Notes under the pieces: generated by a model | What the model was told of the DNA's origin: nothing | Database searches by the model: none | The model's input: the letters and a program-made list of their open reading frames with translations, nothing else | In this document: positions 3,769-35,021 of the stretch, one piece after another | Position numbering within the stretch: position 1 is the first letter of the stretch | Layout of the letters: each line of letters begins with the position of its first letter | Translations under genes and position numbers: made by a program | Source of the DNA: a virus | Reading direction: 5' to 3' (one strand) | Virus record (IMG/VR): IMGVR_UViG_3300049195_000059 | Length of the DNA stretch: 35,021 nt

Positions 3769-3795
3769 CATTTGTAGAGGCCGCCTCTACAAATG
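3769..3795. promoter_or_regulatory. Copy 1 of a conserved perfect palindrome, CATTTGTAGAGGCCGCCTCTACAAATG. It is a candidate late-activator binding site shared by the divergent O and P promoters.
   Basis: 11-nt arms surround a single central base. The same element recurs at 26291-26323 and 32114-32140. It lies in the 160-bp divergent O/P intergenic region. Confidence 0.6.
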
Positions 3796-3840
3796 GACGG
3801 GCATGATCAGGGGGTTAGCGGCGCTGCATGGTCCGCCGCG

Positions 3841-5694
3841 ATGGCCACTCAATCTCCCCAGCCCGGCGCGCCCTCTGCCATGTGGCAGTTCGATCCGCGC
3901 CGCCATGCGCGCAGCCTCTACTGGCGCGGATGGGGCGTGACGCAGATCGCGGACGAGTTCGCGCTGCACGGCATCGTCAACGAGAAGGGCGGACGGATCC
4001 CGCGCGCGACGATCGAGACGTGGAAGCAACGCGATCGCTGGGATGAGGCACCGTCGATACGCAAGATCGAGGATGGGCTGGAGATCCGGCTGCTCACCCT
4101 GATCGCCAAGGAGAAGAAGACCAGCGCCGACTATGTCGAGATGGACGCGCTATCGCGCCAGATCGAGAGCCTGGCGAAGGTGCGCCGCTATGAGGCTCCC
4201 GGTGGCCATGCCGGCGACCTCAACGACAAGGTCGGCAATCGCAACGCCGGCGAGCGCAAGAAGGCGAAGAAGAACCACTTCACCGCCGACCAGGCGGCCG
4301 AGCTCAAGCGCATCTTCCTCGAAGGCCTGTATGATTATCAGCATCGCTGGTGGCAGGCGAAGGATCAGCGCACCCGCATGATCCTGAAATCGCGCCAGAT
4401 CGGCGCGACCTACTATTTCGCGTTCGAGGCGCTAATCGACGCGATCGAGACGGGCCGCAACCAGATATTCCTGTCGGCGTCGAAGGCGCAGGCGCATCAA
4501 TTCCGGTCCTACATCGTCAGCTTCGCCAAGCTGGTCGGCGTTGCGCTCACCGGCGATCCGATGCTCATCACCTCGGACCTGCGCCTAGCGGAGGAAGCGG
4601 CGGCGGAACTGCATTTCCTCGGGACCAATTTCCGCACCGCGCAGGGCCGCCACGGCAATTTTTATTTCGACGAATTCTTCTGGGTCCACTCCTTCGAGGA
4701 ACTGAACAAGGTCGCCTCGGGCATGGCGACGCACAAGAAGTGGAGGAAAACCTACTTCTCGACGCCGTCGAGCGTGGCGCATCCGGCCTATCCCTATTGG
4801 ACCGGCGATCGCCGCAACCGCCGGCGCAAGAAATCCGAGCAGGTGAAGATCGACGTCAGCCATGACGCGCTGGCGATCGGCAGCGTCGGGCCTGACCGGA
4901 TCTGGCGCAACATCGTCAACATCGTGGATGCCGAGACCGGCGGCTGCGACCTGTTCGATGTCGAGGAACTGCGGGACGAGTACGCCCCCGACGAATTCGC
5001 CAACCTGTTCATGTGCGACTTTGTCGACGACAGCATGTCGGCCTTCCGCTTCAACGACATGATCGCCTGCGGCGTCGACAGCCTGCTCGAATGGAAGGAC
5101 TTCGATCCGGAGGGCGAGCGGCCCTATGGGCAGCGGAACGTCTGGGCCGGCTATGATCCGCAGGAGAGCGAGACCGGCGATAATGCCGCCCTGGTCATTG
5201 CTGCGCCGCCGCTACAGGTGGGCGGCGAGTTCCGGATCCTTGAGCGTCACCAGCTGCGCGGGCTCGATTTCGAGCAGCAGGCGGAATTCATCAAGGCGGT
5301 GCTGAGCCGCTACCACTGCACCTATCTCGGCATCGACGCCAAGGGCGTGGGCGCTGGCGTCTATCAGATCATGGCCAAGCCCGGCACGATGCCCGGCTGC
5401 ACCGTTGCCAAGATCGAATATTCGCTCGAACTGAAGGCCCACATGATCATGAAGGCGCAGAATATCGTGCGCCGTGGCCGGCTCAAGTTCGACACCGGCA
5501 TGCTCGACCTCGTCTCTGCCTTCGTGTCGATCAAGAAGACGCTGACCACCAGCGGCCGCAACGTCACCTTCAAGGCGGGACGCGGCGGTGAGGACGGCCA
5601 TGCCGATCTCGCCTGGGCGACGATGCACATCCTCATGAACGAACCGCTCGACGGGAAGGAAAACCCCAAGGGCACGATGGAGATTATCGAATGA
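3841..5694 (+). CDS. P: Terminase large (ATPase) subunit, P2 gpP family. The start is uncertain: 3793, 3841 or 3880.
   Basis: LYWRGWGVTQIADEF...TWKQRDRWDE at the N-terminus and the Walker-A-like ILKSRQIGATYYFAFEA are typical of gpP. Its stop overlaps the portal start (ATGA). Confidence 0.9.
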   Translation: MATQSPQPGAPSAMWQFDPRRHARSLYWRGWGVTQIADEFALHGIVNEKGGRIPRATIETWKQRDRWDEAPSIRKIEDGLEIRLLTLIAKEKKTSADYVEMDALSRQIESLAKVRRYEAPGGHAGDLNDKVGNRNAGERKKAKKNHFTADQAAELKRIFLEGLYDYQHRWWQAKDQRTRMILKSRQIGATYYFAFEALIDAIETGRNQIFLSASKAQAHQFRSYIVSFAKLVGVALTGDPMLITSDLRLAEEAAAELHFLGTNFRTAQGRHGNFYFDEFFWVHSFEELNKVASGMATHKKWRKTYFSTPSSVAHPAYPYWTGDRRNRRRKKSEQVKIDVSHDALAIGSVGPDRIWRNIVNIVDAETGGCDLFDVEELRDEYAPDEFANLFMCDFVDDSMSAFRFNDMIACGVDSLLEWKDFDPEGERPYGQRNVWAGYDPQESETGDNAALVIAAPPLQVGGEFRILERHQLRGLDFEQQAEFIKAVLSRYHCTYLGIDAKGVGAGVYQIMAKPGTMPGCTVAKIEYSLELKAHMIMKAQNIVRRGRLKFDTGMLDLVSAFVSIKKTLTTSGRNVTFKAGRGGEDGHADLAWATMHILMNEPLDGKENPKGTMEIIE

Positions 5695-6740
5695 GCAAGC
5701 GCGCACGTCGAATGAACCGCCGGGAATCGGCCGCAGCGTCTCAGGGCGCGATCGTCGCGGCCAGCGATGCTCGCGGAGGTTCGGTCGAAGCCTTCACCTT
5801 CGGCGATCCGGAGCCGGTGCTGAGCCGCGCCACGATGCTCGACATGCTGGAATGCTGGCACAATCATCGCTGGTATGAGCCGCCGATCTCTCTGGACGGG
5901 CTTGCCCGCGCCTTCCGCGCCTCGCCCCATCATTCGAGCGCCATCATCCTCAAGCGCAACATGCTCGCCGCCAGCCTTGAGCCCACGCGCTGGCTGTCGC
6001 GCAAGGCATTCGCCGGCTTGGTGCAGGACTATCTGGTCATGGGGAACGCCTATGTGCAGGAGGTGCGCAATCGCCTCGGCGGCGTGATGAGGCTTGACCA
6101 TTGCCTGGCGAAATATGCACGGCGCGGGGTGGAGCCGGGGCGCTTCTGGTGGGTGCCGGGCTATCGGCAGGAAAGCGAGTTCGAGCCGGGTACGGTCCAC
6201 CAGTTGATGGCACCGGACATCAACCAGGAGATCTACGGCCTGCCCGAATATCTATCCGCCCTGCAGTCGGCGCTGCTCAATGAGAACGCGACGCTGTTCC
6301 GCCGGCGGTATTTCGAGAACGGCAGCCACGCCGGTTACATCCTCTACGCCACCGGCGACTTCGCTGACGGAGACGTCGACAATATGCGCGAGGCGCTGAA
6401 GCGATCGAAGGGGCCGGGCAATTTCCGCAACCTGTTCGTCCACGCCAGCAACGGGAAAGAGAACGGCATCAAGATCCTGCCGATCGCCGAGGTGGGCGCG
6501 AAGGACGAGTTCCTGGGGATCAAGAACACGACGCGCGATGACGTGCTAGCCGCACATCGCGTGCCGCCCCAGCTGCTCGGCATCGTGCCCGCGAACGCCG
6601 GCGGCTTTGGCGACGTGACGAAGGCAACCGACGCCTTCTTCGAACTGGAAATCGAGCCGCTGCAGTCCGTCTTCCTCGAACTCAACGAGGCGCTCGGCTT
6701 TGAGGCTGTGCGGTTTCGCGAGCGCGTGAAGGCGGAATAG
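5691..6740 (+). CDS. Q: Portal protein, P2 gpQ family
   Basis: 349 aa. It directly follows and overlaps gpP. Its length and position match gpQ. It is followed by a terminator and cos. Confidence 0.88.
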   Translation: MSKRARRMNRRESAAASQGAIVAASDARGGSVEAFTFGDPEPVLSRATMLDMLECWHNHRWYEPPISLDGLARAFRASPHHSSAIILKRNMLAASLEPTRWLSRKAFAGLVQDYLVMGNAYVQEVRNRLGGVMRLDHCLAKYARRGVEPGRFWWVPGYRQESEFEPGTVHQLMAPDINQEIYGLPEYLSALQSALLNENATLFRRRYFENGSHAGYILYATGDFADGDVDNMREALKRSKGPGNFRNLFVHASNGKENGIKILPIAEVGAKDEFLGIKNTTRDDVLAAHRVPPQLLGIVPANAGGFGDVTKATDAFFELEIEPLQSVFLELNEALGFEAVRFRERVKAE

Positions 6741-6764
6741 CCCCTTCCTTCGCTGCCACATGCC

Positions 6765-6796
6765 AGGGCGGTCCTGATCGGGGCCGCCCTTTTTCG
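6765..6796 (+). terminator. Rho-independent terminator after the portal gene
   Basis: AGGGCGG-N12-CCGCCCT hairpin followed by TTTTTCG. Confidence 0.7.
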
Positions 6797-6933
6797 TGCC
6801 CGCGCAACATTATTTCACGCCTTACCACCGGCGGACCGGCGACTGCCTGGGCGCGCGGAACCGCGGATCGCCCGCGAGGCCGGGCCTGCGGGGGCCTGCG
6901 GCGAGGGCAGGCCGCTGCCACCCCTCAAAACGC

Positions 6934-6953
6934 GCTTTTCCCCCCGCCTCGCC
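6934..6953 (-). other. Candidate cos site (cohesive-end sequence), P2-like
   Basis: The reverse complement reads GGCGAGGCGGGGGGAAAAGC. This is nearly the same as the P2 19-nt cohesive end as I recall it, GGCGAGGCGGGGAAAGCAC. Its position (about 200 bp beyond the 3' end of Q) and orientation match P2. Confidence 0.7.
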
Positions 6954-6972
6954 CGCGCGCTTTTTATGTCCC

Positions 6973-7392
6973 TTTTGATGCACTGCGGACATCTCCATTC
7001 CGGCCCCGTCGCTGCTGGGCCGCAGACCCATCCGAAGGGGCACGGCGCTGATTCGTTTTGATGCACCTTCGGGCCCGTTTGAAGGTGTGCAGCGACGTCC
7101 GATTTCGTGCGTGGAGCAGCGCGGCGATCGAGGGAGGGGGCGGGAAAGCGTAACATCCGCAACCTTGTCCGCCGGTGCCATGTCAAGGCTTTGAAATAAG
7201 GCTGCTTTCTGTGTCACGTTCAAGACGTAACCGAACGCCACCTATGCCTTAGAAAAATGCAACACCCGCAGAAAACCTAGCTTTTTCAAACTGTAAATGT
7301 TGCACTTTCAAAATGTAATCTGGTTGCACCAATGTTGCGTCAAAGGTTGCGTCAGAAATGGCGGAAATCCGTCGATGTTGCAGATGTTACAC
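6973..7392. repeat. Iteron-like cluster with consensus (T/G)GTTGC(A/G)(C/T). It is a candidate replication origin or regulator-binding array.
   Basis: Forward copies: 7298-7305 TGTTGCAC, 7322-7329 GGTTGCAC, 7333-7340 TGTTGCGT, 7345-7352 GGTTGCGT, 7376-7383 TGTTGCAG, 7385-7392 TGTTACAC. Three are spaced 11-12 bp apart. Inverted copies: 7258-7264 and 7150-7164. TTTTGATGCAC occurs twice (6973-6983 and 7056-7066). An AT-rich stretch lies at 7270-7320. Confidence 0.5.
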
Positions 7393-7436
7393 TTTTTCCG
7401 ATACCCCCCTCATGATGAATAAACAGCGTGGTGGAT

Positions 7437-8045
7437 ATGTCGGTATCGAAGCTTCTCAGATTGGCTCAGGCGATTGCCGACAAAGCAAACGAGGATCTGC
7501 ATAAGCAGTGGATCGCCCTGTCGTTTAAATTCGCCATCGTGGCGGGCCCCGCTCACACTCCAACGATCCAGAGGATTGGGCGTCTTGATCTTGTGCTCCG
7601 GCAGATGGAGGCCGATATGCTGGATCAATTGCGTCTGCCCGACGACCAGCAGGATATATTCGCGTTCGACCGCCTCTCAGATCAATCCGAGGTTTGGATC
7701 ATCCGAGCTTATGAGGTGATCCGGGCGGCCACGCAGCAGTTGCGCGTGAATCAGAAGGAGAGCGCATCGATAGCCGCGCTGAAGAAAAGCCTGGCGCTGG
7801 TGCGAATGCCGATTGCCAAGGGCGAGATCCAAGGCCGGCTGAACGGCGATCCGCTTATCCTATCCCATAGAGATGGCACCGATCCGAAGCCCTATGCGGC
7901 TGATGGAACTTACATTATGCCGCAGGGCATCTGCACAGCAACAGGATCGATCAGTTGGTCTGCCGTCGATCTGAGTGGCCGAAGGAACGTGATGATACGC
8001 CGTCAAGCATTGGCAGATGAGATGCTAAATCTGGCCATCGAGTAG
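7437..8045 (+). CDS. Hypothetical cargo protein (about 202 aa) in an AT-rich island. No family recognised.
   Basis: This is the only long ORF in a region that is clearly AT-richer than its flanks. The translation is protein-like (MSVSKLLRLAQAIADKANEDLHKQWIALSF...). The start is ambiguous (GTG 7428 or ATG 7437). Confidence 0.6.
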   Translation: MSVSKLLRLAQAIADKANEDLHKQWIALSFKFAIVAGPAHTPTIQRIGRLDLVLRQMEADMLDQLRLPDDQQDIFAFDRLSDQSEVWIIRAYEVIRAATQQLRVNQKESASIAALKKSLALVRMPIAKGEIQGRLNGDPLILSHRDGTDPKPYAADGTYIMPQGICTATGSISWSAVDLSGRRNVMIRRQALADEMLNLAIE

Positions 8046-8060
8046 GCTGTGCGGCATGCT

Positions 8061-8078
8061 TATGGTTCATTGTATGGT
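8061..8078 (+). repeat. Two direct TATGGT repeats 12 bp apart. These are candidate integrase arm-type sites (P arm).
   Basis: TATGGTtcattgTATGGT. The same hexamer recurs three times at 8271-8309 on the other side of the candidate core. Confidence 0.45.
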
Positions 8079-8142
8079 ATGCCGCCTCGATCATAAGATT
8101 ATATGCTTATTAAAACAGCTACTTATAGTGAAAATGTGACTT

Positions 8143-8157
8143 CCTCCCTCTCCGCCA
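8143..8157 (+). other. Candidate attP core resembling the 3' end of a tRNA-Ser gene
   Basis: CCTCCCTCTCCGCCA can be read as partial T-stem + CCTCTCC acceptor strand + G discriminator + CCA. That is the canonical pattern of tRNA-Ser starting GGAGAGG. No complete tRNA is present. It lies 150 bp upstream of a P4-type integrase gene. Confidence 0.45.
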
Positions 8158-8190
8158 CCACTGTTCCCACATATCGCCACATGCGGCCAT

Positions 8191-8217
8191 AAGCCCTGGA
8201 ATTACGGGCTTTTGTTG
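8191..8217 (+). terminator. Hairpin plus T-tract downstream of the tRNA-like core. It could terminate the reconstituted tRNA after integration.
   Basis: AAGCCC-tggaattac-GGGCTT followed by TTGTTG. Confidence 0.45.
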
Positions 8218-8270
8218 CCGCCGCTTTGTCCACTCCGGTCCTTGTTTGTTCTCATGTAGCCTCTCTGGCA

Positions 8271-8309
8271 TATGGCGTGATCTATGGTACGCGATTCGGG
8301 GAGTATGGT
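8271..8309 (+). repeat. Three direct TATGG(C/T) repeats (P' arm candidates). The last abuts the int start codon.
   Basis: TATGGC at 8271, TATGGT at 8283 and TATGGT at 8304. GTATGGTATG at 8303-8312 duplicates 8072-8081. Confidence 0.45.
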
Positions 8310-9656
8310 ATGGGCGCGCTGACGGACGCGAAGGTGCGGAACGCCAAGGCCGCTGGGAAAGCCTACAAGCTGACGGACGGGGGGCAGCTTTATCTGCATA
8401 TCTCGACCGCCGGTGGCCGCACATGGCGGATGAATTATCAGTTCGGGAGGAACGCCCAGGGCAATCCGGTGCAGAAGACGCTGACGATCGGCAGCTATCC
8501 CGCGATCTCCCTGAAGGATGCGCGCGATGCGCGTGACGTTGCCAAGGCGCTGCTGGCGAAGGGCAGCGAGCCGAAGCCGGAGGATCTGTTTCAGCGGGCC
8601 GCGCCTGCGGAAGACACGAGGCCGACCTTCGAGACGATCGGCCGGGAATGGCACGATCTGCAGAAGGGGCGCTGGTCGAAGGTCCATGCCAAGGACGTGC
8701 TGGACAATCTGGTGAATGAGGTATTCGCCCAGATCGGGCCAATGCCGATCGTCACGATCGACGCGCCACGGGTGTTTCAGCTGCTGCGCGGTATCGCCGA
8801 GCGCGGGGCGGTCGAGACGGCGCACAGGACACGGCAACGGATCAGCGCCATCTTCGTCTATGCGATTGCCACGGGGCGGGCGTCCGCCGACCCTGCGGCA
8901 AGCCTGTCCATCGCCCTGCCTAAAAAGCCGAAAGCAAAGCCGCAGCCGGCCATCACTACGCTGATCGACGTTCGCCAGCTGATCATAAATTGCGAAGCGG
9001 AGCGGTGCCGCGCGCCCACGAAACTGGCATTGCGGCTGATCGCCCTGACGGCGGTGCGCCCGAACGAACTGCACAATGCACGCTGGGCAGAATTCGAGGA
9101 TCTGGACGGGCCGGAACCGCTTTGGCGCATCCCGGCGCATAGGATGAAAGGCGACAAGGACCGAAAAGCCGAGATGGAGGGCGATCACCTTGTGCCGCTC
9201 GCGCCACAGGCGGTGGCGGTCATCAATGCGATGCGGCCCCTGACCGGTGATTTAGACCTGGTGTTCCCGACTGACCGGCATCCGCATAAGCCAATGAGCG
9301 AAAACACGCTGCGCGCGCTGCTGATCAGGGCGGGCTATCATCAGCGCCATGTGCCCCATGGCTTTCGATCCGCATTCTCCACCATCATGAATGAGCGGGT
9401 GGAGCGGCAATGGCGGGAGAGCGGGCACACAGGCGCGTCACCTGATCGGGCGATCATCGACCTGATGCTTGCTCATGTGCCCCAGGGCGTATCAGGATCC
9501 GAGGGCGACTATAACCGGGCGGCCTATATGCCCCGCCGGCGAGAGTTGGCCTGTGAGTGGGCGGACATTCTTCTGGCGGACATGTGGCCGCCGCAGATCC
9601 ACATCGGAGAGCCGATCCGATGGGCAGCAACCGGGCCGGGTAGGCCCGGTTGGTAG
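8310..9656 (+). CDS. int: Tyrosine integrase, P4-like (DUF4102 N-terminal domain)
   Basis: MGALTDAKVRNAKAAGKAYKLTDGGQLYLHI..GGRTWRMNYQF...TIGSYPAISLKDARD is the typical P4-int N-terminus. C-terminal catalytic motifs are present (HGFRSAFST, LAHV, YNRAAYMPRRRELACEWAD). A GGGGAG Shine-Dalgarno precedes the ATG at 8310. Confidence 0.92.
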   Translation: MGALTDAKVRNAKAAGKAYKLTDGGQLYLHISTAGGRTWRMNYQFGRNAQGNPVQKTLTIGSYPAISLKDARDARDVAKALLAKGSEPKPEDLFQRAAPAEDTRPTFETIGREWHDLQKGRWSKVHAKDVLDNLVNEVFAQIGPMPIVTIDAPRVFQLLRGIAERGAVETAHRTRQRISAIFVYAIATGRASADPAASLSIALPKKPKAKPQPAITTLIDVRQLIINCEAERCRAPTKLALRLIALTAVRPNELHNARWAEFEDLDGPEPLWRIPAHRMKGDKDRKAEMEGDHLVPLAPQAVAVINAMRPLTGDLDLVFPTDRHPHKPMSENTLRALLIRAGYHQRHVPHGFRSAFSTIMNERVERQWRESGHTGASPDRAIIDLMLAHVPQGVSGSEGDYNRAAYMPRRRELACEWADILLADMWPPQIHIGEPIRWAATGPGRPGW

Positions 9657-9658
9657 CC

Positions 9659-9844
9659 TCAGCAGCGATTGGAAATCCAAGCGTCCACTTCGCTTTCGAT
9701 CCATCGGGAACAGCGCGGGCCTAGATTTCTCGGCGCGGGGAACTCGTTGCGGCCGATCAGGACATATATGTAGGAGCGGGACAACGCCGTGCGGGCGATG
9801 ACATCTCCAATCCGCAGGAATCGTTCATGGTTTTGGGCGATCAT
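9659..9844 (-). CDS. alpA: AlpA/Phage_AlpA-family HTH protein, a candidate excisionase or regulator
   Basis: MIAQNHERFLRIGDVIARTALSRSYIYVLIGRNEFPAPRNLGPRCSRWIESEVDAWISNR matches the AlpA pattern (LR..eV....sRstiY.li..g.FP.P..lG.r..RW...EV..Wi). It is convergent with int. Its ATG overlaps the upstream stop. Confidence 0.8.
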   Translation of the reverse strand: MIAQNHERFLRIGDVIARTALSRSYIYVLIGRNEFPAPRNLGPRCSRWIESEVDAWISNRC

Positions 9845-10536
9845 GCCGCCAGTTTCCTTTCCGCTGTGCCCGCGATCTTCTCGCGTGGTGGTATCCAGAA
9901 GGTCGGCGCAAATGGCCGGCCTTGAAAGTCCGTCATGGGAGCGCGGCGCTTGTCCCACACCACCCACATATAATCGATCTTGCCATGGTCGTATGCGTTG
10001 TCGCCCAGCTGCTCGATGATGTCGCCGGGGGGCATCGAGGGCCGCTCGCAGAGGATCCAGACGCCGATCGGCGTCTCGTCCGTGAAAAGCCGGTAGCGGC
10101 CTTCGCTCGCGAGCCATTTGAGCGGCAGTAGGGCGCAGACCTTGTGCGTGGCGATCGACAGGGCACGGCGGATGCACTTTTCCGCCAGGCCGCGCACGAG
10201 GCGGCCATTCTGGAAAGAGAATGGCGGATTGAAGATGATCGACAAGCCGCCGCCTGCTTCCAGCAGATGGCGCTGGTCGCCCAGGAGGTCATGCTCGCCC
10301 ATGAACAGCCGGTGGCCGCCGGCGCGATCGAACAGATCCGTGCCGTAGGCGTTGAGGCCGCGCTCGGTCAGCGCCTCCGGGATATGCAGCTGGCCGCAGC
10401 AGGGATCCAGATAGGTGACGTCCGATTCCAGGGCGATCATGTCGAGCAGGCGGTGCGTCACCCACTTTTCTTCGACATACCAATCCCAAGGATGGCGGCT
10501 GCTGCCCTTCGGGCGGGAAGTGAGTTCGCCGCTCAT
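9841..10536 (-). CDS. Orphan DNA N6-adenine methyltransferase (NPPF motif IV)
   Basis: LDPCCG (SAM motif I-like) and IIFNPPF (motif IV). It has ATGA overlaps with both neighbours. Confidence 0.7.
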   Translation of the reverse strand: MSGELTSRPKGSSRHPWDWYVEEKWVTHRLLDMIALESDVTYLDPCCGQLHIPEALTERGLNAYGTDLFDRAGGHRLFMGEHDLLGDQRHLLEAGGGLSIIFNPPFSFQNGRLVRGLAEKCIRRALSIATHKVCALLPLKWLASEGRYRLFTDETPIGVWILCERPSMPPGDIIEQLGDNAYDHGKIDYMWVVWDKRRAPMTDFQGRPFAPTFWIPPREKIAGTAERKLAA

Positions 10537-10871
10537 CCTCGCTGCTCCGGGAGGCTGTAGGAGGTGGTCTCTAGGCGGCAGCGCATCCAGTGATTTTTCA
10601 ATTTGGAATAGCTGTTGCGATCTAAAGCGACGGACGCTTCCCACGAGCCGTTCGGATCAGTCAGGACATCGGCATAGAAATCCGGTAGGTCGCCTTCCGG
10701 CTCAACCTCAACGCGGCCAGACAAGGCGGCCCGGCGAAGAACAGTATTGACGGCATCGCGCCCGCCATCAAAGATTACGCTTTCGCAGGCAATCAGCTGC
10801 TCTCCGACGATCTTATACAGCTTCAGGCCGCAAGTGTCGGGATGTAGGCGCTCTAGGTTCAAGGCGCTCAT
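10533..10871 (-). CDS. Hypothetical protein (112 aa)
   Basis: The ORF runs from the internal ATG at 10871 (MSALNLERL...). It is translationally coupled on both sides. Confidence 0.5.
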   Translation of the reverse strand: MSALNLERLHPDTCGLKLYKIVGEQLIACESVIFDGGRDAVNTVLRRAALSGRVEVEPEGDLPDFYADVLTDPNGSWEASVALDRNSYSKLKNHWMRCRLETTSYSLPEQRG

Positions 10872-11464
10872 GACCGAAATTCTCCCTTCGCGGTCTCGTA
10901 GGCTGCGTTCAGCCGGTCCCATTCAGCGCGGGTACCGCCCGCGTCAGGATGAGCAGACGTCGCCCTGGATCGATACGCGCGGTTGATGGTAGCAAGATCG
11001 GCATCGCGGGTGACGCCTAGCACCTGCCACCATTGTTCAGGGGCAGGCAGGGCCTCGTAGCCGGCGAACGCCTGGGCTTTGTTGCCGACACCCCAGCGAT
11101 CCATGCCCCGCATCGCTTCTATGTGCTTCGCGATCGCCGTGATGTTGTCGGCGACGCGGTCCCACTTGTCGCATGCTAAAACGATCGGCTTGCCGTTGAG
11201 GCGGAAGTAGAAGGCGACGCCGGCGTCGGGGGGCTCCGCACGGTCAGAGCGCGGCCGCCCGTCAAGCCTAAGCTCCACATTGGTCGATAGAATTGCATCT
11301 GCACCGCCGAGAAGGTCGATCTCGCGCTGCAGCCGCTCACGGGCTACCGCAATGGTGACGCTCTTCATCCAACCATCGCTGCTGCGCTGGCTGAAGCGTG
11401 CGGTTTGAGGACGTGCTGTGCGCGGCCATCCAACAGGCCAGTGCAGCGGATAGGACTGGGTCAA
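10868..11464 (-). CDS. J-domain (DnaJ-like) protein with an N-terminal domain of unknown function
   Basis: The C-terminus WWQVLGVTRDADLATINRAYRSRATSAHPDAGG..EWDRLNAAYETA contains the HPD tripeptide of J domains. It probably starts at a TTG overlapping the upstream stop. Confidence 0.7.
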   Translation of the reverse strand: MTQSYPLHWPVGWPRTARPQTARFSQRSSDGWMKSVTIAVARERLQREIDLLGGADAILSTNVELRLDGRPRSDRAEPPDAGVAFYFRLNGKPIVLACDKWDRVADNITAIAKHIEAMRGMDRWGVGNKAQAFAGYEALPAPEQWWQVLGVTRDADLATINRAYRSRATSAHPDAGGTRAEWDRLNAAYETAKGEFRS

Positions 11465-12702: not shown

Positions 12703-15426
12703 TCAGGATTTCTTGGCGACGGCCCGCGACGGATCGTGGAAGATCCAGCAGCGGACAGAGCCGATGTCGTTTCGGGAATTGACGGTCGCCTGCTCGATGA
12801 AGCGGCGGGCCTTTGAGGTTTTGAGCGCCCGGATCATTTCGGAATGGGTGGGCAGCTGCAGGCGCTTCTCGGCGCAGCGGGCCTCCATTTCGTTGAGGCG
12901 GACGGCGATCAGGCCTTCTTCCCACCGGCGATGGTGGTTGATGTGGCCGGCGATCGCCTTCGGATCCTCGTTCTCTTCGAGATAGTCGAAGCGCTCCCAG
13001 AACAGGCTGACGACGGGGTCTTCGCTGTTGACGGCCAACTGTCGATCGCTTGCCATCTGGACGATGAAGCGGGCGGTTTCGGCCTGCTGCTGATCGGACA
13101 GCGGCACGACGGCGCGGATCGCGTCCAGGAAGGCGAGCAGCTGGCCGTGAGTCTTGGCGAGGCGATTGGTGCGGATCGCCGGCAGCGCCAGCAGTTCATC
13201 CTCGTATTGAGCGAACGCCTGGCGGAACCGCGCCATGATGACCTGCTCGCGGCGTGCGGCGTGGACGATGAAGCCGGAGATCTTTTCTACCGGCCATTGT
13301 TCAAGCCGTTCGGCCGCCGCCTTCGTCTCATTGGTGAAGTTCGACATGTCGAAACCGAGCGACATGATGCGCTCCAGCACCGCGCGGCTCGCGTTGACGG
13401 GTTCGTTCTGCTCGATGACGACAGCGCCCCGGAAAGGCGGCTCGAACGTCTCCATGCCGCCATTCTTCACGCCCCGCGATCGGACGGTACGGCCGTTATA
13501 GGCGGTCTTCAGTTCCTCCCACTCGAATTTGCGGGCGTGGCTGGCTTCCTCGCGGCGGTCGCCCTCGATCAGCACGACGGGAAGATTGCCGACCTTGCCG
13601 AGGTTTCGCGCCATGGCCGCCGGCGTCGCCTTGGCAGGGTCGAAGCCCTCATAATTTTCACGGCCGAGCAGCTTCCAGAGGAATTCGATCAGCGTCGTCT
13701 TGCCGGTGCCGGGCAGGCCGTGCATTTCGAGGAAGGGGAAGCTCTTCATTTCGCCGCGGACTTGCTCTGCGAAGAGCGAGGCGAAGTAGAAGGTCAGGCA
13801 GGTGATGCCCTTCGCGCCATAAGCCGTCCACAGATCGGGCAACCAGCTGGTGTCCAGCTGATCGGGATCATAGTCGATATCGAGCAGCCGTTCGGACGTG
13901 CCGAGTTTCAGCGCCTGCTTTCCGATCTGGAAAAACTCGTTGTCATTGGGCTTGTAGACCCGCCCGCCTGCGACGGCATATTGGCCGAAGACATAGGCCT
14001 GTGCGTCGCGGCAGTAGCCGGTAAAACCGAGCGGGCGCACGTCGGGCAGATCAGGCGTCTGCTGCTGCAGGATGCGGGTCAGCTGGTGGGCGCTGCCGGT
14101 CCAGACGCCGCCGAAAGCGAACAGGCGGTCTTCGAAGTTTGAGGCCTTGCGCAGCTGGGCGGCGGTGAAATCTCCCTTCACCGAGGGGCGCTTGCCGCTG
14201 GGGAAGGATATGTTGAGGAAGAACTTGGTTTCGTCGGTCGCCTCGTCCCGCTGCCGGTAGAGGACGCGGAATGCGCAGTTGGCGATTTCCTCGACCATCA
14301 GCGCTTCGCGGGAGGCCTGCATGCGGATTTCCGCTTCTACGGCGGCGTCGATGTCCTTCAGTTCACGGGTGCGGCTCTTGCGATATTCGTCAATCTTCTC
14401 CTGCACGACGGCGACATCGATCGCGCACCAATAGGTCCGGTTGCCGAAGGTGAAATTGAAGCTGGTCCAGCGGTGCTTTTCCCAGATCAGGAAGGCCTTC
14501 TCCTGGGCGTCTTTCGCCAGCAGCACCTTGCCGAACCAGAGATATTGCGCGCGGTGCTCGGCGGTGAGCCGTTCCAGCCCGAGCAGGTCGTTCCAATCCA
14601 GCACCTTGCCGGTCTCGTCTTCGCCGCAGGGCTGGGCGGCGCTTGCCTGCCATCCCTGGTCTTTCGCCAGCTTCACATGCTGGCGGCTTGCGCTGGTACC
14701 GGCAGAGCCGGCGTCATAGGCAAAGACGAGCTTGGGCGAGCGCAGGGGCTTGTCCGACGTCGCGATATGCGCCCGAAGCTGTTTCAGGAACTCTTCGGGA
14801 TAATTATTGCACGACATGGCGGAGACGGCGCGCTGGCCGGCCTGCTCAAGCGCCCAGGCATTGAAGATGCCTTCGGCAATCCAGATGCTCTCAGCGTCGG
14901 CCATGTCCTCGTTCGACACGTCGGGCCGCTGCCAAGCCTGCCCCTTGTAGGATTTGCCGGGGGCGAAATGCGCCTTGCGATCGAAGCGACCAGGCTGGTC
15001 GATCAGCCGTTCCCACCAACTGCCACCGGGAAGCGGGAAGCGGACGGTGGCGGAACTGATGCCGCGCCGCTCATCCTTGAACCATTCCTGCGAATAGGCC
15101 TCGCGCATCCCCATCAGGTTCAGCTTGCGGGCGTCGGTCAGATAGGCGTCGGCCGCCGCGTGAGGGTTCTCGCGCGTCTTCTGATAGCGGTTCGACCAGG
15201 TGTCGAAGATCTCGGGGTAACGATCGCGGACGGTTTCTTCCCATCCGCATTTTTCCTGCCGATTGCACTTGAGCATCCAAGGGCTCTCGGCGTTCGTATA
15301 CACCTGATACGCCCCGCAGTCCGGGCATTTGCCACGGCGCAGCCATGAGCCCTTGTCGGTCTTCCACTGGAAATCGGCTTTGAGCCTGGGCAGCAATTCG
15401 CGGCGGATATCGTCACGCATGGACAT
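12703..15426 (-). CDS. Bifunctional primase-helicase (zinc ribbon + TOPRIM-type primase + P-loop NTPase), P4-alpha-like architecture
   Basis: 907 aa. The N-terminal zinc ribbon is CPDCG...CNRQEKC. An acidic TOPRIM-like segment (IWIAEGIFNAWAL) follows. The Walker A motif is MHGLPGTGKTT in the C-terminal half. It occupies the replication-gene position. Confidence 0.8.
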   Translation of the reverse strand: MSMRDDIRRELLPRLKADFQWKTDKGSWLRRGKCPDCGAYQVYTNAESPWMLKCNRQEKCGWEETVRDRYPEIFDTWSNRYQKTRENPHAAADAYLTDARKLNLMGMREAYSQEWFKDERRGISSATVRFPLPGGSWWERLIDQPGRFDRKAHFAPGKSYKGQAWQRPDVSNEDMADAESIWIAEGIFNAWALEQAGQRAVSAMSCNNYPEEFLKQLRAHIATSDKPLRSPKLVFAYDAGSAGTSASRQHVKLAKDQGWQASAAQPCGEDETGKVLDWNDLLGLERLTAEHRAQYLWFGKVLLAKDAQEKAFLIWEKHRWTSFNFTFGNRTYWCAIDVAVVQEKIDEYRKSRTRELKDIDAAVEAEIRMQASREALMVEEIANCAFRVLYRQRDEATDETKFFLNISFPSGKRPSVKGDFTAAQLRKASNFEDRLFAFGGVWTGSAHQLTRILQQQTPDLPDVRPLGFTGYCRDAQAYVFGQYAVAGGRVYKPNDNEFFQIGKQALKLGTSERLLDIDYDPDQLDTSWLPDLWTAYGAKGITCLTFYFASLFAEQVRGEMKSFPFLEMHGLPGTGKTTLIEFLWKLLGRENYEGFDPAKATPAAMARNLGKVGNLPVVLIEGDRREEASHARKFEWEELKTAYNGRTVRSRGVKNGGMETFEPPFRGAVVIEQNEPVNASRAVLERIMSLGFDMSNFTNETKAAAERLEQWPVEKISGFIVHAARREQVIMARFRQAFAQYEDELLALPAIRTNRLAKTHGQLLAFLDAIRAVVPLSDQQQAETARFIVQMASDRQLAVNSEDPVVSLFWERFDYLEENEDPKAIAGHINHHRRWEEGLIAVRLNEMEARCAEKRLQLPTHSEMIRALKTSKARRFIEQATVNSRNDIGSVRCWIFHDPSRAVAKKS

Positions 15427-34879: not shown

Positions 34880-35021
34880 CAGATGAGGTCCACCAAGGTG
34901 CGGCTGCGGCCGAGCATGTCGCGGATCGCGTGCAGGGCATCCCGGCGCAAGTCGCCGATCGATGCACTGAGTTCGTCGGCCTGGTTGCCGCCCGCTGCCG
35001 TCGTGTCAAAATCGCGGTGCC
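34879..35021 (-). CDS. L: 3' end of head completion gene L. Bases 34895-35021 duplicate window bases 1-127.
   Basis: It reads ...DMLGRSRTLVDLI* with the TGA at 34879-34881 overlapping the X start codon. It is the same reading frame as feature 1-467 across the junction. Confidence 0.85.
   Translation of the reverse strand, partial: HRDFDTTAAGGNQADELSASIGDLRRDALHAIRDMLGRSRTLVDLI
34895..35021. repeat. Terminal direct repeat, identical to 1-127
   Basis: Exact 127-bp identity with the start of the window. Confidence 0.95.

Follow-up and report, generated by a model that had tools for sequence, protein, structure and literature searches.

The locus and the phage that carries it

We analysed a 35,021-nucleotide (nt) stretch of viral DNA (IMG/VR record IMGVR_UViG_3300049195_000059; hereafter the window, meaning the whole stretch), focusing on a single open reading frame (ORF) at positions 7437–8045, between the cos site and the phage attachment site attP. 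This ORF is very likely an accessory cargo gene occupying a variable slot at the cos/att end of the genome, and its horizontal acquisition as a 'moron', placed between a cos-proximal repeat array and attP, is the best explanation of the features found there. The window belongs to a P2-like phage, as an earlier note on this DNA had assumed. The gpL-M-N-O/P-Q module is present, with the small terminase, capsid and scaffold genes of the P2-type head module on the minus strand and the large terminase (3793–5694) and portal genes on the plus strand (Pfam domains Terminase_5/6N/6C and Phage_portal). The portal protein matched 488 GenBank phage records at up to 65% identity, mostly P2-like, and the named matches were P2-like phages of Burkholderia, Klebsiella, Ralstonia and others. 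The host of this temperate phage is a sphingomonad bacterium; nearly all organism-named relatives of the ORF product were from Sphingomonadaceae. Since positions 1–127 are repeated exactly at 34895–35021, the window is a circular assembly of a phage genome of approximately 34.9 kb in its excised or replicating form. Integrated copies of the same phage were also present in other contigs of related samples (L143 and L147; related loci and contigs are designated by L numbers throughout).

The frame runs on the plus strand from either a GTG at 7428 or an ATG at 7437 to 8045, and is the only credible gene in the AT-rich tract around it. The ATG is the likely start, because homologues begin with MSV or MSA at this point and a GGTGG lies just upstream. 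The product (22 kDa; grand average of hydropathy, −0.14) contains neither a signal peptide nor a transmembrane segment, and the exact protein was found intact in 19 contigs from several samples. An AlphaFold2 model based on a 136-sequence alignment reached a predicted local distance difference test (pLDDT) score of 96.7 and a predicted template modelling (pTM) score of 0.91; in the predicted fold, five N-terminal helices (residues 3–128) are followed by an extended stretch that bears three short strands and leads to a C-terminal helix. Within the family, D51, W87, R123, W174 and R189 are invariant, and W25, R55, E58, Y92, R96, K128, Y153 and G170 are nearly so. With 13 close and 562 distant relatives and a confident model, what had been described as one protein-like ORF is a real gene.

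Variability of the slot

None of the 68 P2-like loci found through the portal protein contained a homologue of the ORF. The gene is thus not a core gene fixed in all related phages, nor is it needed for the life cycle. Relatives with the same array carry seven other gene sets after it (Table 1). In an alignment of nine loci, one of them the window, the cargo of eight begins just past the array and points away from it, a hint of a promoter at the array's distal end. The expectation that the slot would prove variable was therefore borne out, with different cargo following the same upstream region. Variation is also found in a second interval, from the portal gene to cos, with a length of 176–5861 nt (median 1409) in 51 relatives; that of the window (6741–6931) is the shortest, is empty of genes and holds only a terminator. 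Small extra genes were observed between portal and cos in L004.

Positions of cos and the attachment sites

The cos site was located by alignment to P2 cosL, in which 12 nt are identical (CCCCGCCTCGCC), and a conserved core around it (6913–6986) shows 77–97% identity across 51 related loci. The order of the portal stop, a terminator hairpin and cos approximately 180 nt further on is the same as in P2, where tQ sits between Q and cosL in a place equivalent to that of the window's hairpin.

The attP core was fixed by the attL and attR junctions in integrated copies. At attR, positions 7625–8157 of the window recur without a mismatch in L098, a metagenome contig of 933 nt, which then enters a host cyclophilin-type isomerase gene. 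At attL, two contigs with an identical integrase (L143 and L144) contain host genes, a tRNA-Ser(CGA) gene ending in CCTCCCTCTCCGCCA, the window sequence from 8158 onward, and int. In addition, one 62.7-kb contig carries int at its left end and the exact ORF approximately 34 kb further, at its right end, where host genes follow (Pro_isomerase, DUF72, GGACT, DLH and AhpC). Integration uses the 15-nt core at the 3' end of tRNA-Ser(CGA), and the prophage extends from tRNA-Ser–int to ORF–attR, with the ORF as the outermost gene at the right end. In this form, 97 nt (8046–8142) separate the end of the ORF from the attR core, and the ORF reads outward into the host peptidyl-prolyl isomerase gene. In virion DNA cut at cos, the ORF stands last at the right-hand end, like old in P2. 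The attP core lies 1.2 kb from cos, and the ORF starts 484 nt from cos with nothing but the iteron array between them. The position given in the earlier note, between cos with the portal gene and the integration module, was thereby confirmed.

The motif TATGGTW occurs in four copies genome-wide, all of which flank the attP core (Table 1), and judged by sequence these repeats are candidate arm-type sites of the integrase. TATGGTW resembles the TTATGGT iteron in the arrays of L069–L078, which may be a coincidence. An exact-pattern scan of viral contigs for the attP–int junction returned two chance matches and no more. Rfam had no match in 6500–8500, the spacer between the ORF and attP folded as RNA no better than shuffled sequence, and a scan for intrinsic terminators near the ORF found none.

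Table 1. Features of the cos–attP region in the window, and cargo found after the array in related loci (aa, amino acids)
Feature	Position or locus	Strand	Basis or remark
Portal gene, gpQ homologue, left landmark	5691–6740	+	Pfam Phage_portal; phrog_68 at 1e-143
Terminator-like hairpin after the portal gene	6765–6790	+	11-bp stem, then T-run
cos, P2-type cohesive-end sequence	6932–6953 (approximate)		Aligns to P2 cosL (NC_001895, 1–19)
AT-rich iteron array, conserved	7120–7415		10 GTTRC motifs
Cargo gene, 202-aa soluble protein, isoelectric point 7.9	7437–8045	+	ORF, relatives, AlphaFold2 model
Two TATGGTW repeats, P-arm side of attP	8061–8079	+	Motif rarity
attP core, CCTCCCTCTCCGCCA	8143–8157	+	15 nt identical to the last 15 nt of tRNA-Ser(CGA)
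Two TATGGTA repeats, P'-arm side of attP	8283–8310	+	Motif rarity
Integrase, P4/CP4-57 type, right landmark	8310–9656	+	Pfam Arm-DNA-bind_3, Phage_int_M, Phage_integrase; 448-aa product in 14 contigs
AlpA-like gene, 61 aa	9659–9844	−	Pfam Phage_AlpA; called directly after int in L143
305-aa protein with SEC-C motif	L043		After array
HipA_2 kinase and DUF3037 pair	L049, 9800–11373		After array; matches PADLOC candidate system PDC-M66A/B
Protein of >723 aa	L061		After array
379-aa and 178-aa proteins	L063		After array
233-aa protein	L064		After array
145-aa protein	L096		After array
Two ORFs	L067	−	After array

Base composition of the tract

The GC content of the whole genome is 0.634, and that of positions 7200–8130 is 0.517, in agreement with the AT-rich stretch first described there. 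Among all 609-nt segments of the genome, the lowest value (0.509) was obtained at start position 7151, and every segment starting between 6901 and 7951 was below 57%. The lowest-GC stretch of the genome (7166–8157) consists of three parts, namely a non-coding part at 7166–7436 (0.454), the ORF (0.560) and positions 8046–8157 (0.429). The low GC of the array and the attP arm is a property of functional backbone and not of foreign DNA. The ORF itself had the lowest GC content at third codon positions (GC3) of the genes measured, 0.66 against 0.70–0.86 in eleven others. The foreign-looking composition thus applies to the ORF but not to the array and the attP arm.

The upstream iteron array

Ten GTTRC motifs were counted in 7150–7390, where approximately 0.8 per 300 nt would be expected, and the genome contains no second cluster. 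Four are on the minus strand (7150–7259), followed by six on the plus strand (7299–7386). The array region could be aligned with eight other loci, and in seven of these the ORF is absent (blastn pieces 64–78% identical); in relatives without the gene, its nucleotide identity is 65–88%. It lies 268–306 nt after cos in every locus where it was detected, whatever the cargo; examples are L004 (7685–8000), L043 (9385–9700) and L078 (8640–8940). Its conservation ends sharply after TTTTTCCGrTACCCCCC, approximately 20 nt before the start of the ORF. Because the array is kept in relatives without the ORF, at a fixed distance from cos and with a sharp end, it belongs to the backbone, and only approximately 7416–8050 is cargo. 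The view of the array as the gene's own had to be abandoned.

A single motif variant is common to all array copies within each phage: GTTGCA in the window, L004 and L067, GTTACG in six other loci, and GTTATGG in the homologous arrays of L069–L078 and L095, while GTTATA-, GGTAAC- and CTATAA-type repeats were found in L090, L091, L094, L030 and L037. This uniformity suggests that the sites co-evolve with a phage-specific DNA-binding protein. In a search for this protein, the identity of TerS did not track the motif type, and no segment of the primase stood out. Arm sites of the integrase were ruled out as the function of the array, for its distance from cos is fixed, its distance from the att site is variable, and the TATGGTW repeats bracket the core. 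Judging from its sequence features, the array may be a replication origin for the Toprim primase, an accessory site for packaging, or a regulatory region. The ori and crr iterons of P4 are bound by the alpha primase, and the array resembles them in its many short TGTT-type motifs, its AT-rich stretch, and its occurrence in a phage with a large Toprim primase rather than gpA; its fixed distance from cos, however, would suit a role in packaging equally well. We also observed that the first array element (7133–7150) begins with GGGAGGGGGCGGGAAAGCG, an inverted partial copy of the cohesive-end sequence that is conserved in relatives; its counterpart at cos (6932–6953) is GGCGAGGCGGGGGGAAAAGCGC on the minus strand.

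Relatives of the cargo protein

A search of 5.8 billion proteins returned 13 close relatives, a single one of them named (Sphingobium vermicomposti, hypothetical protein). In an exhaustive profile search, 562 cluster representatives were obtained at E ≤ 1e-3, nearly all of them single-domain proteins of approximately 200 aa, and a metagenome scan with a 38-sequence alignment yielded seven loci. Among 50,697 GenBank phage genomes, neither a homologue of the ORF nor a match to the 1.57-kb region was found. No family in Pfam, PHROGs, PADLOC or NCBIfam matched the protein or its 135 relatives, and a profile search against the sequences of the PDB gave only a marginal partial match to Get3, which we read as chance. 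In Foldseek searches, a first model (pLDDT 80.6) retrieved nothing from the PDB below E = 0.1, and the best hits of the second model (pLDDT 96.7) had E = 1.5 in the PDB and E = 0.14 in BFVD. The protein thus cannot be assigned to a family, as the earlier note had reported from the sequence, and none of these searches placed it in a replication or packaging family.

Ten of the 150 listed relatives exceed 240 aa, eight of them by an N-terminal extension. Two extensions gave hits below threshold, an N-terminal RHH_5 domain in P0093 (E = 0.16) and a YdaS-like helix-turn-helix in P0116 (E = 0.15); the latter gene is divergent from an integrase gene.

The surroundings of the homologues are diverse. 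In L012, the gene is an opposite-strand insert in the structural cluster of an HK97-type prophage, and L010 and L011 look similar. L013 and L111 place it at prophage edges, beside a DUF4145 gene and divergent from an integrase gene, respectively. In Novosphingobium, it lies in the accessory island of a conjugative plasmid together with RelE/ParE, an AAA ATPase pair, NTase-HEPN and integrases. No neighbour common to different contexts was found that could be a partner gene. Downstream of the homologue in Methylobacterium (L009, 10751–11317), a 188-aa protein contains an RNRVVH motif (Rx4H, HEPN-like by eye); by hhalign, this protein is unrelated to the ORF family, whose profile also gave no match to the other cargo of the slot.

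A sister phage lineage (L004–L006 and L099–L103) holds the ORF in the same slot with 56% identity, while its TerL, portal and capsid proteins are 87, 76 and 48% identical to those of the window phage, respectively. Its att site differs, being at tRNA-Val. In this lineage, the ORF homologue is followed by a conserved spacer of approximately 128 nt and an intact tRNA-Val(TAC) gene (L004, 8622–8825; L001, 934–1139), and in L078 (12363–12523), the same spacer is followed by only the 5' half of tRNA-Val, joined to an integrase gene. This arrangement suggests, on sequence evidence, that an attP of the L004 type carries the promoter and 5' part of tRNA-Val and that the right junction would rebuild the gene, an unusual geometry. 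The possibility that the ORF is a host gene beside tRNA-Val, with the phage inserting itself into the promoter of that tRNA, was raised by L001 and L004 and was rejected for the window phage, since attL and attR place attP downstream of the ORF.

Neighbouring genes

The AlpA-like gene after int is probably an excision or directionality factor. The early region further contains genes for a DNA methyltransferase (phrog_799; 9841–10644, minus strand) and a DnaJ-domain protein (phrog_9210; 10868–11464, minus strand), and a 907-aa Toprim primase (12703–15426, minus strand) stands where P2 has its gpA-type initiator. A GapR-like DNA-binding gene was also present within the early-region operon of L143. 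The ORF had been described as transcribed against the neighbouring early genes. This is correct insofar as the early genes are on the minus strand, but int lies between, and the ORF is co-oriented with the terminase, portal and int genes.

Comparison with known cargo sites

Morons are independently transcribed accessory genes inserted between the backbone genes of phages. The gene at 7437–8045 resembles them as a lone gene of atypical composition between conserved flanks, present or absent among close relatives, and with a homologue that lies opposite to the structural genes in an unrelated phage type (L012). It differs in that consensus scans, which used the Escherichia coli sigma-70 consensus for a phage of an alphaproteobacterial host, did not find a promoter or terminator of its own.

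In P2-like phages, the hotspots near cos serve as reservoirs of anti-phage genes (Rousset et al. 2022, PMC9122126), and the old/tin hotspot of P2 is flanked by gpA and gpQ (PMC9122126). The window shares with P2 a P2-type structural module and cargo next to cos at the right end of the virion DNA. In both, the content is highly variable among relatives and the genes stand alone, those of P2 being expressed from the prophage; moreover, the slot of one relative (L049) is filled by a candidate defence pair. On the other hand, the slot of the window is bounded by cos with the array and by attP–int instead of gpA and gpQ, and the replication gene that would form the gpA-side flank is 4.6 kb away. 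The equation with the position of old/tin therefore holds for the variable, cos-proximal right end and for the portal side, and fails for the flank on the other side. The cargo protein is also unrelated to Old; it lacks the ATPase and Toprim domains, and with 202 aa it is too small for them.

In other respects, the locus resembles that of phages of the phiCTX, phiRSY1 and phiRSX types, in which attP is also close to cos, a 15-nt 3' portion of tRNA-Ser is used, and int lies at that end (PMC5694545). As in phiCTX and phiRSY1, whose cargo consists of ctx and ORF1–4, low-GC cargo lies beside cos. Their cargo is situated between cos and gpQ, whereas that of the window is between cos and attP; their tRNA is Ser(GGA) rather than Ser(CGA), and the cargo proteins are unrelated.

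Possible functions of the cargo gene

We tentatively consider an anti-phage function for the cargo gene, by analogy with these hotspots. The literature prior for cargo at such sites being anti-phage is sizeable (PMC9122126, PMC13586616). Under this reading, the gene would be transcribed alone in the lysogen, under signals located where the array region ends on the ORF side, and its product would serve in conflict without a partner, most likely through exclusion of superinfecting phages or abortion of their infection. It would probably do so by binding directly to some component of the phage or the host, as with P2 Tin, or through triggered toxicity, rather than as a recognisable enzymatic effector, and the conserved polar residues D51, R55, E58, Y92, E93, R96, R123, K128 and R189 may form the putative binding site.

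Several observations weigh against an anti-phage role. The protein had no match in PADLOC-DB v2 at E ≤ 1, and PADLOC applied to 136 family members gave one match at chance level (E = 0.0068). A consensus scan of 6700–8400 found no sigma-70 promoter, with the E. coli consensus applied to a phage of an alphaproteobacterial host. No effector, sensor or membrane domain is recognisable in the protein, so the mechanism is conjecture. Some homologues are found in ordinary surroundings, namely between housekeeping genes in Sphingobium vermicomposti, 12 nt downstream of a multihaem cytochrome gene in plasmid pMSHV of Sphingobium herbicidovorans, and in a plain chromosomal or metabolic setting in L112. 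The hotspot priors derive from P2 and P4 of E. coli and not from alphaproteobacteria, and such hotspots also hold anti-defence, virulence and fitness genes. The anti-phage reading is plausible and is the one we favour among those considered, although it is somewhat less likely than not. The more specific proposal, that the protein founds a new family of single-gene proteins for anti-phage or inter-mobile-genetic-element conflict, mobile among prophage morphotypes and plasmids and delivered into the array–attP slot, appears somewhat unlikely.

A lysogenic-conversion or host-fitness factor, that is, a cytoplasmic protein altering host physiology (stress, redox or regulation) in the manner of ctx and other morons in phiCTX and phiRSY1, is unlikely, and the positional and mobility evidence speaks for it as much as for an anti-phage function. 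The homologues outside mobile elements (pMSHV, S. vermicomposti and L112) would fit such a role, as would the non-defence cargo that P2-like phages of Pseudomonas and Ralstonia (phiCTX and phiRSY1) carry beside cos (PMC5694545). However, the protein has no recognised domain for metabolism, regulation or secretion and neither a signal peptide nor a transmembrane segment, its contexts keep changing without a conserved host pathway adjoining the gene, and most contexts that carry any signal are accessory regions of prophages or plasmids.

It is less likely still that the gene benefits the phage itself, either through counter-defence (anti-restriction or anti-abortive infection) or by modulating the decision between lysis and lysogeny or excision. 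Many anti-defence genes are likewise small, stand-alone, fast-evolving and without a family, and this gene adjoins attP and int; possible N-terminal DNA-binding modules in P0093 and P0116, together with the position of the latter divergent from an integrase, point in the same direction, but these fusions are statistically insignificant. The role of directionality factor is already filled by the AlpA-like gene, 68 relatives manage without the gene, and its homologues in structural clusters and plasmids argue against a function tied to the att site.

A further alternative is that there is no island, the low GC being that of functional non-coding DNA (the array and attP arms) and the ORF an old resident of the phage lineage. 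The AT-richest parts of the tract are indeed backbone, and the 56% identity of the L004-type ORF falls within the 48–87% range of the structural proteins, which fits vertical descent. This explanation is nevertheless improbable, given that the GC3 of the ORF is the lowest among the genes measured, that 68 relatives lack the ORF while other genes occupy the same coordinate, and that homologues occur in unrelated phage types and plasmids. Finally, a spurious or decaying ORF without function, in favour of which nothing but the lack of annotation can be cited, is effectively refuted by the 562 relatives with invariant residues, the pLDDT of 96.7 and the intact copies in 19 contigs.

Implications

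Overall, the locus is of a known kind, and its protein is confidently folded in the model yet without a match to any known family or structure. The locus is also experimentally convenient, with one 609-bp gene, exact att sites, and circular and integrated copies in the same metagenome set, and the natural 'allelic' replacements of the cargo in relatives can serve as comparators. The iteron array, whose motifs vary in concert within each phage, merits attention in its own right. If the cargo is not a defence gene, it would be an ordinary moron without a known function. If it is an exclusion or defence factor, it would bring into the catalogue of defence systems a single-gene family that is new and has an unmatched fold, and would extend the idea of the P2 cos hotspot from enterobacteria to alphaproteobacterial P2-like phages, in the rearranged order of cos, array, cargo and attP.

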